64,000 nt of DNA from an uncultured Eubacteriales bacterium (GCA_902373415.1 CABKLX010000007.1:87894-151893); one strand, 5' to 3'; shown: positions 16,404 through 61,828, numbered from the stretch's first letter. The notes: generated by a model from the sequence alone, not told the origin. Translations and numbers: made by a program.

Positions 16404-16479
16404 GGGAGTTTAGCTCAGCTGGGAGAGCATCTGTCTTACAAACAGAGGGTCACAGGTTCGAGCCCTGTAACTCCCACCA
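16404..16479 (+). tRNA. tRNA-Val (anticodon TAC)
   Basis: GGGAGTT…AACTCCC acceptor stem; anticodon arm TCTGT-CTTACAA-ACAGA; T-loop GGTTCGAGCCC; ends ACCA (CCA encoded). Confidence 0.9.
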
Positions 16480-16522
16480 CTTTCTTAAACACCGCGCCGA
16501 ACGGTTCGGTCGCATTATATAC

Positions 16523-16599
16523 GGCTTCGTAGTTCAGTTGGTTAGAACGCCGCCCTGTCACGGCGGAGGTCGTGGGTTCGAGTCCCATCGGAGTCGCCA
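16523..16599 (+). tRNA. tRNA-Asp (anticodon GTC)
   Basis: anticodon arm CCGCC-CTGTCAC-GGCGG; T-arm GTGGGTTCGAGTCCCAT; acceptor stem has two G-U pairs; CCA encoded. Confidence 0.85.
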
Positions 16600-16606
16600 T
16601 TTTTTT

Positions 16607-16682
16607 GCGGTATTAGCTCATCTGGTAGAGCGCAACCTTGCCAAGGTTGAGGTAGCGGGTTCGAGCCCCGTATACCGCTCCA
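16607..16682 (+). tRNA. tRNA-Gly (anticodon GCC)
   Basis: GCGGTAT…ATACCGC acceptor stem; anticodon arm CAACC-TTGCCAA-GGTTG; T-loop GGTTCGAGCCC; CCA encoded. Confidence 0.9.
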
Positions 16683-16933: not shown

Positions 16934-17851
16934 CTATGACGGATAGCGTGCCAGTTTATAATTCTTTATTTCCATCGTGCAGTCGAAACTCCCGTGGATC
17001 TCCCAGCCGATGTTCGTTCCCGTGAAACAGAGATCGTCCGCGGTGATCTGTCTGCCGAAAATGCCGGACTCATTTATCCTGTTTACGAGTTTTTTGATGT
17101 GAGGCGTCAGATCGACCTCAAAGTGTGTCCATTCTTTTGTCGTTTTCAGACGGAGCGCGTTGGTTCTGCCTCCCATTGAATCGACCGTCGAAAGCGCGTA
17201 GATCATGCATCCGCTCGCGATGTCGTGCTGCCAGTTTGTCGGTTGAAGTCCGCGGCTGTCGAATATCCGCATTCCGAACCATACAAACCCCGGTCCGTCG
17301 GTCGCGCGTACATACAGGAATATCAGAAATTCGGCCGCGCTGACGCCTTCACCGACGCAGTCGGGTTTGAAATCCGCGAGACGGAGATCTCCGGAAACAA
17401 CGTACTTACCCGCGCTGAGAGGGGAATCGTCAAAAAAATCGGAGGAGGAGGACGTGTTTTCAAGCAACAGATGCGGCCACGCGTCTTCTCCGGCGGGCGC
17501 GCCGTCGTAGTATCCCGCGGCGTTCAGCCGAAGAGAAACGCTGTCCTGCACGGGATCGTATGTCACGGTCTTTACTTTTCCGTCCGTCAGAACGTTCGGG
17601 TCTCCCGTGTCAACGCGGTCGTCCCACAGGCACGGTCCCGAATTCCATTGGGCGAGGATCCATTCGGGAGACGCGCTGTTTTCGGGAAATGTTCCGAGAT
17701 CTTCATAACTTCCGTCGGAACGGAGTTGACTGCGAACGGCAAAACCGTTCGTAAACCCCGAATTTCCGAATAAATATTTCCGAACACTGCAACTGCTCAA
17801 CAAAACGATCACCAAGATTCCCGATATTATTGCGGATAATACTTTTTTCAT
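16934..17851 (-). CDS. hypothetical lipoprotein
   Basis: start placed at MKKVLSAIISGILVIVLLSSCS (lipobox) with RBS AAGGAGatattttATG; the ORF track's 63-codon upstream extension is ignored. Confidence 0.7.
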   Translation of the reverse strand: MKKVLSAIISGILVIVLLSSCSVRKYLFGNSGFTNGFAVRSQLRSDGSYEDLGTFPENSASPEWILAQWNSGPCLWDDRVDTGDPNVLTDGKVKTVTYDPVQDSVSLRLNAAGYYDGAPAGEDAWPHLLLENTSSSSDFFDDSPLSAGKYVVSGDLRLADFKPDCVGEGVSAAEFLIFLYVRATDGPGFVWFGMRIFDSRGLQPTNWQHDIASGCMIYALSTVDSMGGRTNALRLKTTKEWTHFEVDLTPHIKKLVNRINESGIFGRQITADDLCFTGTNIGWEIHGSFDCTMEIKNYKLARYPS

Positions 17852-18032
17852 AAAATATCTCCTTTTAAGGTTCTGTCCGCCGCCGTTTTCCTCCTCGGAC
17901 AGATAAAGCGCCGCATATATGTTAACCTTATCATAACCCCGACGGTTTGTCAAGCCTTTCGGAGCGAAAAATCGTTTTGTCTCTGATTTTCTGTCGGTCT
18001 TCGGCTGTCTGACACGGTATATCGGCAAAGAA

Positions 18033-18060
18033 AGCGGCATCCGTATTCGCGGATGCCGCT
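18033..18060 (+). other. hairpin 8 nt upstream of the intron 5' fragment (terminator-like homing-site structure)
   Basis: agcggcatccg tattcg cggatgccgct: 11-bp perfect stem, no T-run. Confidence 0.5.
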
Positions 18061-18068
18061 CGGCTTAT

Positions 18069-18127
18069 GTGCGCCCGGTGAGCGCACGTCCTATGGGGTG
18101 AAAGTCCCGAAGTTGCCCGGTAACGGA
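18069..18127 (+). mobile_element. truncated 5' end (about 59 nt of domain I) of a class-IIC-like group II intron
   Basis: GTGCGCCCGGTGAGCGCACGTCCTATGGGGTGAAAGTCCCGAAGTTGCCCGGTAACGG; canonical GUGCG 5' boundary; 54 of 58 positions match the start of the full intron at 21753; similarity stops abruptly at 18127. Confidence 0.65.
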
Positions 18128-18415
18128 GTGTCAACCAAGTACCTCAATCGGTATCTCGCAATGTTCGTCGCTCTCGAACAGGCGGGACGCTCCCTGTTCC
18201 ATCCTGACGTGGATGCAGTTAGAATCATGCTTTCCCGGGTGAATACCGCTCTGCCAATCCGCTCTCTTCGCAAAGATGGCCTTTTGGCAATTTGACGATT
18301 AGGTCCAATGTTTTAAACTAACACGAAAATAATTGTCCGATTTCAACAAAAAAACGGAAGAACCGTCAAAAATGGGTTGTTTTGGAGCCAAATGTGTGGT
18401 AGAATCATTTTGTCA

Positions 18416-18496
18416 AGTTTTAAAACGTTTTAAAACAGAGGAGGCGGGGGCTGCCTGATCCCAATCCGTGTTCCCACATCTTAAAACGTTTAAATA
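18416..18496 (+). promoter_or_regulatory. candidate LacI-family operator palindromes in the rhamnosidase promoter region
   Basis: gTTTTAAAACGTTTTAAAAC (perfect palindrome with a central CG) and a second cTTAAAACGTTTAAat about 45 nt downstream; preceded by ttgttt-17-TGgTAGAAT promoter-like elements. Confidence 0.4.
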
Positions 18497-18602
18497 AAGG
18501 CGCATACCGGCGGCTGCCGGGACACGCGGGCGGGGACGGTTTCCACCGCGTATTGCAAAAATCCCGGTCAATCAGAAAAATCTGTCAGATGGAGGCGGCG
18601 AC

Positions 18603-20774
18603 ATGGCATTTGAAAACAGTTCCTTTATCAAACCGGCGGAGCAGTTTGACCCGGCGCGGCTGGACTACGCGCCCATGTTCCGGAAAAAATTCACGGTGGA
18701 CACGGCGGTGCAATTCGCGGTGCTGACGGTTTGTGGTCTGGGATACGGCTACTATTATCTCAACGGCAGCGAGATGACGCCGGACCTGTTCACGGCGCCG
18801 GTGAGCAACTACGAAAAAACCCTGTGGTACAACCGCTATGACGTGACGGAGCAGATCAAAACCGGAGAGAACATCTTGGCCGTGATCTGCGGCAATGGCT
18901 GGTACAATGAGGGCATCAGGACCGCGTGGGACTATGACGCCGCGCCATGGCGCGACATCCCCAAATTCATTCTGACCCTGGAAATCAACGGAGAAGTGGC
19001 GGTCCGCAGTGACGCAAGCTGGAGATATACCTTAAAATCGCCCTATCTGTATAATCAGCTCCGGGTGGGTGAGCACTTTGATGCCAGATTGTACGACGAG
19101 AACTGGAACCAGCCGGACTTTGACGACAGCGCCTGGGGGTATGCCAAAGAGGATGACCATCCGCCGAAAGGAATCTTCCGGGAGTGCCTTTGCCAGCCCA
19201 TCCGGGTATGCGGCGAATACCCGCCGAAGTCGGTGAAAAAAATCGGAGAGGACCGGTATTTGTTTGACTTTGGGCTAAATATGTCGGGCGTTGCCCGGCT
19301 GAAGGTCCATCAGAGCGCCGGAGACCGGATCGTACTGGAATACGCCGAAAGCATGAATCCGGACAATACCATCCAATACAATGACATGGACAATCCCCAC
19401 TATTACCCGGACAGCCCGTTCCAGACGGACGAATTCATCTGCGGCGGCGGGGAAATGACGTGGACACCCAAATTTACTTATCACGGCTTCCGGTATGTGG
19501 TGGTCACGGGGCTGAAAGAGGCAACCGCGGAAACACTGACGGCGCTGTTTATCCATCAGGATGTAAACCGGATCAGCGACTTTGAATGCTCTGACGAGAA
19601 CCTGAACAGCCTGTTCCGGATCGGCATCCAGGCAACCTGGTCCAATCTGTTCTACATGCCCACGGACTGCCCCACCCGGGAGAAGCTGGGTTGGATGAAC
19701 GATGCCCAAAGCTCCATCGAACAGATGCTGACGGACTTCGACATGGAAAAGCTGCTGACGAAATGGTGGCAGGATATCTGCGACGCCATGCGGGAGGACG
19801 GCATGCTGCCGGGGATTGTGCCCAGTTCGGGTTGGGGTTACGAGTGGGGCAACGGCCCCGTTTCGGAGGGAACCCTGTTTGAGATCCCTTACAGGATCTA
19901 TCTGCACACCGGTGACGATACCCTGCTGAAAAAAGGTCTGACCTATTTCAAAAAGTACAACCGGTATTTGCAGGGCTGCAAGGATGCCAAGGGCGATATC
20001 TGCTACGGACTGGATGACTGGGCGCCTCCGGATAACACGGACAAGGTTGGCGCGGCTTTTATCAACAAGGTGTTTACCATCAAATTCCTGCGGATTACCA
20101 TCCTGGCCCAACGGGTCAGCGGCGAGGACCCGGCGGAAACCCAGGCGCTTCTGGACCGGGAAATTCAGGAAATCCGGAACCGCTACCTGGATGAGACGGG
20201 CCGATGCACCATCCACAAGCAGACGGCGGTGGCCATGCTGGTGTACAACGGTCTGTATGAAAATCTGGCGCCCCTGTCGGAACAGCTGAAAGAACTGGTG
20301 GAGGAAAAGAATTTCCACCACGACTGCGGCATGGTGGGCCTGCGGCGGTTGTACATGGCACTGAATCGCTGCGGCCTGCAGGAATACGCCTACCGCATCA
20401 TCACGGCCAGAGGCTTCCCGTCCTATGTGAGCTGGCTGGAGGACGGCGCCACCGCGCTTTGTGAGTTCTGGGATATGTCGGTGTCTCAAAACCACCATAT
20501 GTATTCCGATTTCATGTCCTGGATGATGAAAACCATTCTGGGCATCGGTGCGGATATTGCCCATCCCGGCTTTACACAGGTGGAAATCAATCCGTATTTC
20601 TTCCGGGAACTCACTTACGCCAGGGGCTATTGCGGTACGGTGCGCGGGCGCATCGGCGTCGCCTGGAAGCGTACGAGTGACAGAATCGAGCTGACGGTGG
20701 AAGTGCCGGAGGGCATGACGGTCACTTGCCGGGGGCAGACCCTGAAAAGCGGCGTCAATGTGATCACCGCCTGA
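18603..20774 (+). CDS. alpha-L-rhamnosidase, glycoside hydrolase family 78
   Basis: 723 aa; GH78 catalytic-domain signature MPTDCPTREKLGWMNDAQ; (alpha/alpha)6 six-hairpin C-terminal region; RBS GGAGGcggcgacATG. Confidence 0.85.
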   Translation: MAFENSSFIKPAEQFDPARLDYAPMFRKKFTVDTAVQFAVLTVCGLGYGYYYLNGSEMTPDLFTAPVSNYEKTLWYNRYDVTEQIKTGENILAVICGNGWYNEGIRTAWDYDAAPWRDIPKFILTLEINGEVAVRSDASWRYTLKSPYLYNQLRVGEHFDARLYDENWNQPDFDDSAWGYAKEDDHPPKGIFRECLCQPIRVCGEYPPKSVKKIGEDRYLFDFGLNMSGVARLKVHQSAGDRIVLEYAESMNPDNTIQYNDMDNPHYYPDSPFQTDEFICGGGEMTWTPKFTYHGFRYVVVTGLKEATAETLTALFIHQDVNRISDFECSDENLNSLFRIGIQATWSNLFYMPTDCPTREKLGWMNDAQSSIEQMLTDFDMEKLLTKWWQDICDAMREDGMLPGIVPSSGWGYEWGNGPVSEGTLFEIPYRIYLHTGDDTLLKKGLTYFKKYNRYLQGCKDAKGDICYGLDDWAPPDNTDKVGAAFINKVFTIKFLRITILAQRVSGEDPAETQALLDREIQEIRNRYLDETGRCTIHKQTAVAMLVYNGLYENLAPLSEQLKELVEEKNFHHDCGMVGLRRLYMALNRCGLQEYAYRIITARGFPSYVSWLEDGATALCEFWDMSVSQNHHMYSDFMSWMMKTILGIGADIAHPGFTQVEINPYFFRELTYARGYCGTVRGRIGVAWKRTSDRIELTVEVPEGMTVTCRGQTLKSGVNVITA

Positions 20775-20821
20775 GCCGTATCCGGCGGAAATCTGGAATT
20801 ACTGAATGAGGGGCGATTGCC

Positions 20822-21547
20822 GTGAACATCATGAAATTACTGGCGGAAAAGGCAAAGGACAACTGGAATGCCCGGCCGGTGACCATTGCGTTTTTGGGGG
20901 ACAGCGTCACCCAGGGATGCTTTGAGATTTACAAAAAGAATGAGACGGAGATTGAAACCGTATTCGACAAAAACAATGCCTATCATACGGATGTGGCCAA
21001 AATTCTCGCCGTTCTGTTTCCCAGCGTGCCGGTAAATATCTTCAACGCGGGCATCAGCGGGGACAATGCGCCCCATGCCCTGGAACGGATGGAGCAGGAT
21101 GTCCTGTGCCATCACCCGGACTTAACGGTGGTATGCTTTGGCTTGAACGACTGCGGCAACGGGGTCGAAAAGGTGGAGCAGTATGCCCAGGCGCTGCGAG
21201 GGATTTTTGAAAAGCTGCGGCAGGCGGGTTCAGAGATCATATTCATGACGCCCAATATGATGAATCCCACGGTCAGCTGTCATCTGACGGACCCGCTGAT
21301 GCGGAGCATCGCGGAGGACACCATGCGCCGGCAGAACGGCGGGGTGTTGGAATGCTACCTGGAGAACGCCAGAAAGGTGTGTAGGGAATATGGGGTCACC
21401 CTCTGTGACTGCTACGAAAAGTGGAAGCTTCTGTATGAGAACGGTGTGGATGTGACGGAGCTTTTGGCCAATAAAATCAACCATCCCACCCGGGAAATGA
21501 ACTGGCTGTTTGCGGTGTCCCTGGTGGACACCATGCTGCGGGGATAA
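20822..21547 (+). CDS. SGNH/GDSL-family hydrolase (esterase / acetylesterase-like)
   Basis: 241 aa; block I AFLGDSVTQG with catalytic Ser; block III GLNDCG; C-terminal DxxH-type motif (NHPTREMN). Confidence 0.75.
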   Translation: MNIMKLLAEKAKDNWNARPVTIAFLGDSVTQGCFEIYKKNETEIETVFDKNNAYHTDVAKILAVLFPSVPVNIFNAGISGDNAPHALERMEQDVLCHHPDLTVVCFGLNDCGNGVEKVEQYAQALRGIFEKLRQAGSEIIFMTPNMMNPTVSCHLTDPLMRSIAEDTMRRQNGGVLECYLENARKVCREYGVTLCDCYEKWKLLYENGVDVTELLANKINHPTREMNWLFAVSLVDTMLRG

Positions 21548-21572
21548 CATCACGAAACAAGGAGGAAACAAT

Positions 21573-21695
21573 ATGAAAACCATCAAAGACAAGCAGCTCC
21601 TGGTCGGAGCGGACTTTGCCGGCTATCCGCTGAAGGAAGTTGTCTGCGAGCATCTGGGGGACTACCCGCTGAAGCTGGAAACCAAGCCGGAATAA
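21573..21695 (+). pseudogene. 40-aa N-terminal fragment of an RpiB/LacA/LacB-family sugar-phosphate isomerase
   Basis: MKTIKDKQLLVGADFAGYPLKEVVCEHLGDYPLKLETKPE* resembles the first ~40 residues of RpiB/LacAB (M.IAIGxDxAGxxLKExIxxYL); intact members are ~150 aa; RBS AAGGAGG present. Confidence 0.5.
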
Positions 21696-21716
21696 ACCCT
21701 CCGGTCACGAAACCAA

Positions 21717-21744
21717 GGCGGCATGCTCCGGCGTGCCGCTTTTT
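21717..21744 (+). terminator. rho-independent terminator (intron homing-site hairpin)
   Basis: GGCGGCATGC tccg GCGTGCCGCT followed by TTTTT; the intron begins 8 nt later. Confidence 0.7.
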
Positions 21745-21752
21745 CATACTAT

Positions 21753-22452
21753 GGGCGCCCGGTGAGCGCACGTTCTATAGGGTGAAAGTCCCGAAGTTGC
21801 CCGGTAGCGGGAAGACTTAGCCAAAGGCAAGGGTGTCCATCGCGAGGTGGAATCTGAAGAAAGCCGGATTTTGGGAGTTAAAAGGTCTCCCAATGGGCAA
21901 AACTCTGGCCTGACGAACAGAAATCGCATATAAGGCCGCCGGCGAGGGTAAGTTTGCCTAGCAAAACAAAGCCCAATAGCTACACGGAATCGCTCGCGGT
22001 AAATGCGGCAGGTAAAGAGAGAAAGAATGTGTGAGTACCCGGGGAGGTCTCACAGGCGCATCAAAGTAGACATATTCGAAAAAAAATGCGTAGTAACAAC
22101 GAACTGTGAGAAGTCAGCAGAGGTCATAGTACCGGAAAAAAACCGGGAAGGGCTGAACAATCGTTAGTCCTTTGGAAACAATGGAAGCTACCGAAAACGA
22201 GGGTAAAGAATCTGATTCAGCTTAGCATCCCGGATTGGGCTGCCTACAGATACGGCAACTCTCGCAAAGGCTATTGGCGATTGTCGGGGACAACAACTCT
22301 CGCGAGAGCAATCTCAAACAAAAGACTCGCACAGGCCGGATACTACAGCATCCTTGACCGGTACGAGTCTCTGCACTTATGCGATTGAACCGCCGTGTAC
22401 CGAACGGTACGCACGGTGGTGTGAGAGGTCGGGGCTATTCAGCCCCTCCTAC
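21753..22452 (+). mobile_element. ORF-less group II intron, class IIC-like, about 700 nt
   Basis: 5' GGGCGCCCGGTGAGCGCAC…GGGTGAAAGTCCCGAAG; domain I-type motifs (TAGCCAAAGGCAAGGGTGTCCATCGCGAGGTGGAATCTGAAGAAAGCCGG; CCCGGGGAGGTCTCA…GAAGTCAGCAGAGGTCATAGTACCGG); domain V GAACCGCCGTGTACCGAACGGTACGCACGGTGGT at 22387-22420; domain VI GTCGGGGCTATTCAGCCCCTCCTAC ending …TAC at 22452; no ORF longer than ~100 codons inside. Confidence 0.75.
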
Positions 22453-22478
22453 TCTATTCTGTTTCGTTTCTCGGCGCG

Positions 22479-23333
22479 TCAGTCTTCTTTTCCGCCGCCG
22501 ATAAGTTCTTCAAGAGCGCCGTCGAGATCGTGCGTCTCGTATTCGTCGATCTTTCCGCCGTCGCAAAGTTCCGCGAGGCTCGGGTCGATCGGGAGGCGGG
22601 CAAGAACGGGAAGCCCGTGCTTCTCCGCGATGCGGTCGATGTTGCTCTTTCCGAAAATATGATGTTCTTTTCCGCAGTCGGGACAGCGGAAATAACTGTA
22701 ATTTTCAACGAGTCCTATAACGGGAATGTCCATTTTTTCCGCCATGTTCACGGCTTTATCCACGATCATGGAGACCAGATCCTGCGGAGACGTGACGATG
22801 ATAATCCCGTCAACGGGTATGGATTGGAACACCGTGAGCGGAATGTCGCCCGTTCCCGGAGGCATATCGATATACATGACGTCAACATCGCCCCAGACCA
22901 CGTCCGTCCAGAATTGCTTGACCGTGCCCGCAATGACGGGACCGCGCCATATTACGGGGGTCGTTTCGTCCTCAACGAGCATATTCAGGCTCATCGCGCG
23001 GACGCCGCTTTTCGATATTCCCGGGTAGATCCCGTTATCGTCGGCAAGTGCGCGGTCGCTTATTCCGAGCATTTTCGGAATAGAAGGACCTGTTATATCG
23101 GCGTCGAGCACGGCGGTCTTGAAGCCTTTTTTCGCAGTCATGACGGAAAGCAGGGAAGTGACGGTCGATTTCCCGACGCCGCCCTTGCCGCTGACAACGG
23201 CATAGACCTTTCCGACGGTGCTCAATGAATTTACGGGTTCCAAAAAACTCTGCGGAGCGTTTCTCGAAGAACAGTTTTCTCCGCAGGTCGAACAGTTATG
23301 AGTGCATTCGCTTATCGGATCATATCCTTTCAA
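22479..23333 (-). CDS. Mrp/NBP35 (ApbC)-family iron-sulfur cluster carrier ATPase
   Basis: 284 aa; N-terminal Cys-rich segment; deviant Walker A GKGGVGKST; CPxC motif near the C-terminus (FRCPDCGKEH). Confidence 0.85.
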   Translation of the reverse strand: MKGYDPISECTHNCSTCGENCSSRNAPQSFLEPVNSLSTVGKVYAVVSGKGGVGKSTVTSLLSVMTAKKGFKTAVLDADITGPSIPKMLGISDRALADDNGIYPGISKSGVRAMSLNMLVEDETTPVIWRGPVIAGTVKQFWTDVVWGDVDVMYIDMPPGTGDIPLTVFQSIPVDGIIIVTSPQDLVSMIVDKAVNMAEKMDIPVIGLVENYSYFRCPDCGKEHHIFGKSNIDRIAEKHGLPVLARLPIDPSLAELCDGGKIDEYETHDLDGALEELIGGGKED

Positions 23334-37635: not shown

Positions 37636-37711
37636 GGGGGCGTAGCTCATCTGGGAGAGCGCTACATTCGCATTGTAGAGGTAGTGAGTTCGAGTCTCAT
37701 CGTCTCCACCA
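37636..37711 (+). tRNA. tRNA-Ala (anticodon CGC)
   Basis: GGGGGCGTAGCTCA…; G3:U70 alanine identity pair; anticodon arm CTACA-TTCGCAT-TGTAG; CCA encoded. Confidence 0.85.
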
Positions 37712-61754: not shown

Positions 61755-61828
61755 TGCGATATAGTGTAAAGGTAGCACAGCAGCCTCTGACTCTGCTTGT
61801 CGGGGTTCGAATCCCTGTATCGCAGCCA
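61755..61828 (+). tRNA. tRNA-Gln (anticodon CTG)
   Basis: U1:A72 start (TGCGATA…TATCGCA) typical of bacterial tRNA-Gln; anticodon loop CT-CTG-AC; T-loop GGTTCGAATCC; discriminator G; CCA encoded; one C-U mismatch at the base of the anticodon stem. Confidence 0.75.

Follow-up and report, generated by a model that had tools for sequence, protein, structure and literature searches.

A class IIC group II intron without its reverse transcriptase gene behind a terminator-like hairpin in an uncultured Eubacteriales bacterium

What occupies the roughly 700 nucleotides (nt) that separate a terminator-like hairpin from a convergent mrp-like gene in an uncultured Eubacteriales bacterium, and is the element found there still mobile? 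We analysed a window of 64,000 nt, part of a 231-kb scaffold of this organism (GCA_902373415.1, CABKLX010000007.1:87894-151893), in which positions are counted from the first letter of the whole stretch. An initial annotation, made from the sequence alone, had read the interval as a class IIC group II intron without an open reading frame (ORF). We found that positions 21753 to 22457 of the plus strand are a 705-nt class IIC group II intron, an ORF-deleted derivative, and that the resemblance to group II introns goes far beyond chance.

Three Rfam group II intron models matched the window on the plus strand and in the right order. RF02001 (D1-D4-3) matched at 21836-22033 with 132.4 bits (E 4e-27) over model positions 1-170, which is its full length, and RF01998 (D1-D4-1) matched at 22089-22153 with 51.4 bits. 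The model for domains V and VI, RF00029, scored 42.9 bits at 22388-22457 against a gathering score of 40; this match was seen with more permissive filters and was missing from the whole-window gathering scan. The group II intron reading of the initial annotation thus held when covariance models were run, through the domain V/VI model as well as both D1-D4 models, and the strings that it quoted were all found: GGGCG at 21753, GAACCGCCGTGTACCGAACGGTACGCACGGTGGT at 22388-22421, and GGGGCT-ATTC-AGCCCC at 22431-22446.

The boundaries of the element were taken from its relatives. The 5' end at 21753 was set by 20 related introns, in which homology begins with G(U/G)(G/U)YG and the upstream flanks are all different. 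For the 3' end, 113 relatives recovered through an exact 30-nt domain V match showed an end of the ..UCCUACUCGAU type, and the base after it varied (T, C, G) in the 116 tails listed. Because the window reads ..CCUACUCUAU|U (..CUCUAU) at this family-type end, the 3' boundary is placed at 22457, which gives a length of 705 nt. An end in ...TAC at 22452 had been proposed initially; this TAC lies inside domain VI, and both the end and the branch point derived from it were off by 5 nt.

Domain V, 32 nt at 22389-22420 (+), was defined by folding and by the RF00029 alignment. Its 10-bp basal helix and 3-bp distal helix are separated by an AC bulge (22409-10), a GAAC loop caps the hairpin, and the CGC catalytic triad at C22391-G22392-C22393 includes the wobble pair G22392-U22417. 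All 13 pairs were kept in 89 to 90 of the 90 unique relatives, and at least 120 DNA stretches from species-representative genomes contained an exact copy of the central 30 nt, so that domain V of the window equals the family consensus. Domain VI, at 22422-22455 (+), was delimited by folding and by covariation in the same number of unique sequences. The branch-point adenosine, A22451, is bulged and is the 7th nucleotide from the 3' end, and the distal stem pairs 22431-36 with 22441-46. In the RNAalifold consensus of the 90 unique sequences, five of the six distal pairs occurred as 3 to 6 Watson-Crick or wobble pair types, each pair being formed in at least 80 of the 90, and A-U to G-C covariation was likewise seen in the basal part. 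The basal pair U22422-U22455 is a mismatch in the window and is U-G in 85 of the 90 relatives. These results agree with the domain V hairpin and the short, bulged domain VI that were described initially, with two helices, the AC bulge, and the triad in the former and a helix backed by covariation in the latter.

The domain I core lies at 21836-22033 (+), the extent of the RF02001 match, and contains the IIC-type bulge motif AAUCUGAAGAAAG. In an alignment of 21 introns, 18 carry AGGAA at the bulge (AAUCUGAAGGAAG), the window (21858-21862) and its closest full-length relative, L075, carry the one-base variant AGAAA, and L004 carries AAAGAAG. Compared with the Rfam consensus, the window also has a 27-nt insertion hairpin at 21862-21888, which we observed in L075, in shorter form in L030, L086, L040, and L021, and in none of the remaining members. 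The end of domain I and domains II and III, including the conserved AGAAGUCAGCAGAGG, occupy 22089-22153 (+), where the domain labels follow a reading of the RF01998 model. Across domains I to III (D1-D3), the window deviates from its relatives in only one of the 109 columns that are invariant across 20 relatives, and this deviation is at the second nucleotide of the intron. The 5' end reads GGGCG (21753-21757, +), with G instead of the family-invariant U at 21754, and matches the GUGYG consensus in four of five positions. The GUGYG-like end noted initially was therefore present, as was GTGCG at 18069; however, GGGCG is a private U2-to-G mutation (U2G), and the four other assemblies of the locus (L123, L124, L125, and L126) have GUGCG, as does a stub of a related copy at 18069. 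The change is private to the window strain and would be expected to impair the intron.

An intrinsic-terminator-like hairpin, the structured motif that the intron targeted, stands directly upstream of the intron at 21718-21744 (+) and follows a GDSL-lipase gene and a 40-codon ORF. Its stem (21718-21725 with 21732-21739) encloses the loop CTCCGG and is followed by five T residues (21740-21744). The hairpin at 21718-21739 with its T5 folded at -21.8 kcal/mol (z = -5.35), and none of 200 shuffles was as good; it was not among the hairpins listed by a simple terminator scan of the window. The 8-nt spacer CATACTAT lies between the T-run and the intron start at 21753, and the insertion is thus located 8 nt behind a rho-independent terminator, as the initial annotation had it. 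This position is typical of the family. In the 17 members with a readable 5' flank, the 50 nt upstream folded with a mean of -19.7 kcal/mol, compared with -8.4 for random windows from the same loci (p = 1.6e-10); the flanks were T-rich, and in almost all 17 a strong hairpin with a T-rich tail ended a few nt before the intron. The family prefers terminator-like target sites.

The last four nt of the 5' exon, CUAU at 21749-21752 (+), are a candidate intron-binding site 1 (IBS1) with a putative pairing partner in domain Id. The other two flanks from the window species, those of the stub (18065-18068) and of L124, end in UUAU, and all three, which fit YUAU, are complementary to GUAG (22066-69). 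Domain Id ends in a hairpin (GCGCAU...AUGCGU, 22057-22092, +) that was placed by alignment and with reference to PMC10190682 and whose loop offers two candidates for exon-binding site 1 (EBS1). AAAG at 22063-66 has the same four bases as the EBS1 of the Eubacterium rectale intron and pairs with CUAU at three of four positions, while GUAG at 22066-69 would pair at all four. L075, however, has the same loop and a 5' exon that ends in AGCU, and assignment of EBS1 by covariation with the 5' exon ends gave no single consistent register across the 21 introns.

Class IIC introns are set apart by RNA signatures (Toor et al. 2006, PMC1702495): a distal stem of domain V that is 2 bp shorter than in classes IIA and IIB, a CGC instead of an AGC triad, an 11-nt domain I bulge with AGGAA, an EBS1-IBS1 pairing of 3 to 4 bp without EBS2, and a target in which a terminator stem-loop takes the place of IBS2. 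The 3-bp distal helix and CGC triad of the window are as in these signatures. The protein evidence was in the same direction. The translation of 22176-22387 matched only IIC maturases in the PDB, namely 7uim_D at residues 358-420 of 427 (E 1.8e-5) and 6ar1 (E 4.1e-5). L075, from an Oscillospiraceae metagenome-assembled genome (MAG), is 87.6% identical to the window over D1-D3 and encodes a 464-amino-acid protein with RVT_1 and GIIM, for which a Pfam search gave no endonuclease-family match. Against two IIC proteins, the GsI-IIC reverse transcriptase and the E. rectale maturase, this protein scored 393 and 373 bits; its scores were far lower for LtrA of class IIA (150 bits) and for the class IIB maturase 6ME0 (142 bits). 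The class assigned in the initial annotation was thus confirmed by the domain V signatures, the protein remnant, the L075 protein, and the target sites of the family.

The intron lacks its protein gene because about 1.2 kb was deleted. The window aligned to L075 and L124 on both sides of a junction at 22172|22173 (GTTAGTCCTT|TGGAAAC), and relative to L075 the missing segment includes the ribosome-binding site, the start codon, and about 390 codons, with TGGAAAC corresponding approximately to maturase codon 393. The remnant of domain IV that BLAST and the alignment to these two relatives delimited spans 22158-22387 (+), and positions 22158-22163 (CAAUCG) and 22382-22387 (CGAUUG), read from the sequence, may form its 6-bp basal helix. 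The remnant of the intron-encoded protein, 72 open codons followed by TGA at 22170-22388 (+), was identified from the PDB matches, from tblastn to L075, and from the ORF list. Its codons (22170-22385) correspond to the C-terminal DNA-binding region and are 59.7% identical in translation to residues 393-464 of the L075 protein; there is no usable start codon, and the TGA stop at 22386-22388 abuts domain V. The initial description of the interval as having no ORF was therefore right with regard to a reverse transcriptase gene, but it overlooked the open 72-codon maturase remnant. A tblastn search of the 64-kb window for a reverse transcriptase elsewhere showed only this 72-amino-acid remnant.

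The deletion may also have removed a binding site for the protein. In the LtrB intron, DIVa is the analogue of such a protein-anchoring arm. In the ribonucleoprotein of the E. rectale intron, the D4a arm serves as the anchor for the maturase (PMC10190682), and by analogy this arm was probably lost from the window intron with the 5' part of domain IV.

Other assemblies of the locus carry different deletions. L123, the orthologous locus on OLPF01000002.1, is 98.9% identical to the window, has the same 22172|22173 junction, and begins with GUGCG. L125 and L126, from two independent pig-gut metagenome assemblies, have the same 5' flank (the 40-codon ORF and the terminator) and the same 3' flank (the mrp-like gene) as the window. 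In these, intron nt ~113 is joined to approximately maturase codon 332 via an 11-nt microhomology, TGAAGAAAGCC, a repeat with one copy in domain I and another in the maturase gene, and the deletion takes out most of domains I to III and so destroys the ribozyme (L125:130-330, L126:141-341). In L124, the start codon and 25 N-terminal codons are fused in frame to the last 84 codons, which generates a 109-amino-acid ORF (P0001), and the deletion junction lies within a short ATGAAG microhomology; from 22173 onward, L124 is 99.2% identical to the window for 6.2 kb. At least two of these deletions were independent, because more of the 3' part survives in L125 and more of the 5' part in L124. The window deletion and that of L124 are nested, and the former was thus either a third event or a second step. 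In gut metagenomes, the same insertion thus occurs as at least three differently deleted alleles.

The two halves of the intron differed in polymorphism. Among the window, L123, and L124, there were 17 variable sites in the 420 nt of 21753-22172 compared with 2 in the 285 nt of 22173-22457, and the polymorphism of the 5' part was also higher than that of the flanks. Gene conversion from other copies and a different ancestry of the two halves are both possibilities. L124 (ERZ27280560 k141_173666, L124:1-486) was unusual in other respects: it is an mrp-adjacent intron with a wholly different 5' flank, in which a hairpin (AGACCCAACC..GGCTGGGTCT) is followed by 11 nt and GTGCG, and its D1-D3 are about 95% identical to the window, compared with 99.2% from 22173 on, on a contig that begins 44 nt upstream of the intron. 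Either two intron copies recombined here, or the contig is an assembly chimera. The nested deletions would allow the window allele to descend directly from L124, but the lower identity of the 5' part of the L124 intron and its different 5' flank speak against this.

A 23-mer across the window junction (CGTTAGTCCTTTGGAAACAATGG) gave a single match in metagenome_contigs, which was the orthologous locus L123, and none in viral_contigs; the species-genome collection was unscanned. Because the junction was found only at the orthologous locus, there is no evidence that the derivative has spread. The homology search with the remnant gave other short fusion ORFs (P0012, P0016, P0018, P0028, P0033, and P0034), which resemble additional deletion derivatives of related introns from other places.

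Three further relatives deserve description. L021:2846-3480, from a Phascolarctobacterium MAG, is an ORF-less member of the family that lies behind a strong terminator and has only 570 nt between its 5' end and domain V, and it represents an independent ORF loss in a different lineage. On L114 (reverse strand, intron start ~458), a related IIC intron of the 5' GTTTG type begins 5 nt after GTGCGCCCAGCGGCGCAC, which is in turn the 5' hairpin that belongs to a second IIC intron; the former seems to have inserted into the stub of the latter with the first stem-loop as target. The Logan contig L002 (SRR5274032_184) shows no difference from the window in the aligned part of the intron and ends at intron nt 368, which suggests that the assembly graph was broken there by other variants of the intron in the same sample.

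The window itself contains a second trace of the family. A 61-nt direct repeat, 93% identical to 21750-21810, places a paralogous 5' stub (intron nt 1-58) with the canonical GTGCG at 18069-18126 (+), in agreement with the paralogous fragment that the initial annotation had reported there. The stub begins 8 nt after a strong 11-bp hairpin without a T-run (18033-18060; -23.3 kcal/mol, z = -4.5), and downstream of it no domain V/VI and no Rfam match was found in 17500-21800. An ORF that runs out of the stub (18128-18295, ..GVSTKYLNRYLAMFVALEQAGRS..) was considered as the tail of an IS1595-type transposase and dismissed, as Pfam, NCBIfam, and plasmid tblastn searches gave it no support. Rfam identified five transfer RNA genes in 16404-16679, 37636-37708, and 61755-61825, of which three are clustered about 1.4 kb upstream of the stub.

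The flanking genes lie outside the element. The convergent gene at 22479-23333 (-) encodes a P-loop ATPase of the Mrp/NUBPL type (Pfam PF10609, E 3.8e-88). It is a 284-amino-acid ORF with a TTG start; an exact-protein lookup gave no match, and the gene is called shorter elsewhere. The 40-codon ORF upstream of the terminator (21573-21695) shows a weak likeness to the first 28 residues of RpiB (TIGR01120, E 0.035), is annotated as a gene in L001 and L002, and also occurs in the L125 and L126 sequences; it may be a truncated gene remnant.

On balance, the window allele is probably a slowly decaying, vertically inherited relic, still at an early stage, that is no longer mobile after the loss of its ORF, with a ribozyme core that is nearly intact. 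A IIC intron would have reverse-spliced into DNA a few nt downstream of the intrinsic terminator hairpin, and an internal deletion of about 1.2 kb after insertion would then have removed the 5' part of domain IV together with some 390 codons of the reverse transcriptase/maturase. Point changes would have accumulated since, with the U-to-G change at the second nucleotide in the window strain and the loss of the pair at the foot of domain VI. The copy would have been fixed behind the terminator and between convergent genes, a harmless site, and several differently deleted alleles of this one insertion would now circulate in the gut species. Of the two options that the initial annotation had left side by side, a protein acting in trans and a decaying copy, the evidence thus favours decay.

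Several observations weigh against this view. The ribozyme is very well kept for a dead element, with one of 109 invariant positions off, a perfect domain V, and an intact branch adenosine; the 72-codon remnant is still open; and the sister alleles retain GUGCG. The family is represented in the species by additional copies or stubs (18069, and L124 with its different 5' flank), and the break of the Logan contig inside the intron suggests repeats. The case for a lost D4a arm is one of analogy, and single-sequence folds of the 5' region of domain IV from the window, L075, and L124 (z -0.2 to -1.5) were uninformative as to such an arm. Furthermore, no empty site was recovered, and each related contig of the locus carries the intron.

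The alternative that best survives is a non-autonomous but active intron that is spliced, and possibly mobilised, by the maturase/reverse transcriptase of a related full-length IIC intron in the same genome. Such action in trans may explain most bacterial ORF-less introns, according to the review in PMC4424553. A core intact apart from U2G, the GUGCG of sister strains, the additional family copies, the assembly break within the intron, and the ORF-less Phascolarctobacterium relative would all suit an intron served in this way. However, the window copy is mutated at an invariant 5' position and has lost the 5' arm of domain IV, where by analogy IIC maturases would anchor (PMC10190682). Its junction was seen at one locus only, the other deletions at the locus, some of them ribozyme-destroying, look like neutral decay, and no reverse transcriptase was found in the window. 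A copy behind a terminator would also probably be poorly transcribed (PMC8919778). We therefore consider an active, trans-served intron unlikely, although it is the strongest of the alternatives. A broader version of the same idea holds that the species keeps ORF-less IIC ribozymes as a non-autonomous tier, served in trans by a master copy in the manner of miniature inverted-repeat transposable elements ("MITE-like"), with the copies acting as recombination substrates that reshuffle flanking genes. It is prompted by the repeated maturase losses at one site (window/L123, L124, and L125/L126) together with a near-perfect ribozyme, and we regard it as somewhat less likely still.

Much less probable is exaptation, in which the ribozyme, or simply its structured RNA or DNA, would extend a 3' untranslated region, insulate the convergent operons from each other, or act as a hotspot of recombination, and the recurrent loss of the protein gene would have been selected. 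Two or three independent protein-gene deletions at one locus, the well-preserved core of the window allele, and 5' flanks that differ between strains at the intron boundary could be read in this manner. The ribozyme is inconsistently retained, though, as the L125/L126 allele lacks most of domains I to III, the 5' part of the intron is more polymorphic than the flanks, and the pattern fits the "fragmentation and loss" fate of bacterial introns (PMC4496777). Finally, a conserved structured intergenic sequence with a chance likeness to domain V, which could appeal to the narrow margin of RF00029 over its gathering score and its absence from the whole-window gathering scan, was refuted by the 132- and 51-bit matches of RF02001 and RF01998, the maturase remnant in the correct place and frame, the D1-D3 identity with full-length L075 and its IIC-like protein, and a domain V that is the same as in more than 100 introns, and it has practically no probability left.

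With decay as the preferred reading, the analysis explains a 700-nt "empty" intergenic stretch, and its value lies mainly in annotation. The organism has hosted a widespread Clostridia-type IIC intron lineage. The deletion alleles provide a snapshot of protein-gene loss and decay at a harmless site, two of the deletions being flanked by short microhomologies. IIC introns located after terminators have been described already (PMC1702495, PMC8919778, PMC10190682), the origin of bacterial ORF-less introns from ORF-containing ones is established (PMC4424553), and decay by fragmentation is likewise established (PMC4496777). The allelic deletion series is thus an illustration and no new phenomenon, and the understanding of group II introns is unchanged.

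A close counterpart is E.r.I1, the E. rectale IIC intron (PDB 7UIM/7UIN; PMC10190682). Like the window intron, it is of class IIC and targets a DNA stem-loop with a short spacer and a 4-nt IBS1, for which CUAU is the candidate in the window, and the C-terminal region of its maturase (residues 358-420) aligns with the window remnant. Unlike E.r.I1, the window copy lacks about 390 maturase codons and the 5' arm of domain IV, has a 5' exon that ends in CUAU and not CUUU, and carries U2G. The reverse transcriptase of GsI-IIC from Geobacillus stearothermophilus (6AR1) was the best PDB match of the L075 protein (E 1e-116). GsI-IIC and B.h.I1 of Bacillus halodurans (PMC1702495) share with the window intron the CGC triad, the short distal helix of domain V, the AGGAA-type bulge, and the upstream terminator stem-loop. 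Both are autonomous and contain an ORF, and GsI-IIC is highly proliferated, whereas the window copy has lost its ORF and its junction turned up at a single locus. Stem and insertion are 10-13 nt apart here, a distance that lies at or above the upper limit of the 3-11 nt reported for B.h.I1 splice sites. O.i.I1 of Oceanobacillus iheyensis, with which the initial annotation had compared domains I and V, is likewise a IIC intron, of the class that targets terminators (PMC4748821). For RmInt1 of Sinorhizobium meliloti, a different intron in a different host, inactivation by fragmentation has been described, together with a general evolution of bacterial group II introns toward inactive forms (PMC4496777). 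The window intron resembles the bacterial ORF-less introns reviewed by Zimmerly and Semper (2015, PMC4424553), which have no reverse transcriptase ORF in domain IV and derive from an ORF-containing ancestor. Introns of that category usually have a related intact intron in the same genome. In contrast to the usual ORF-less introns, several alternative deletion alleles are found here at one insertion site.

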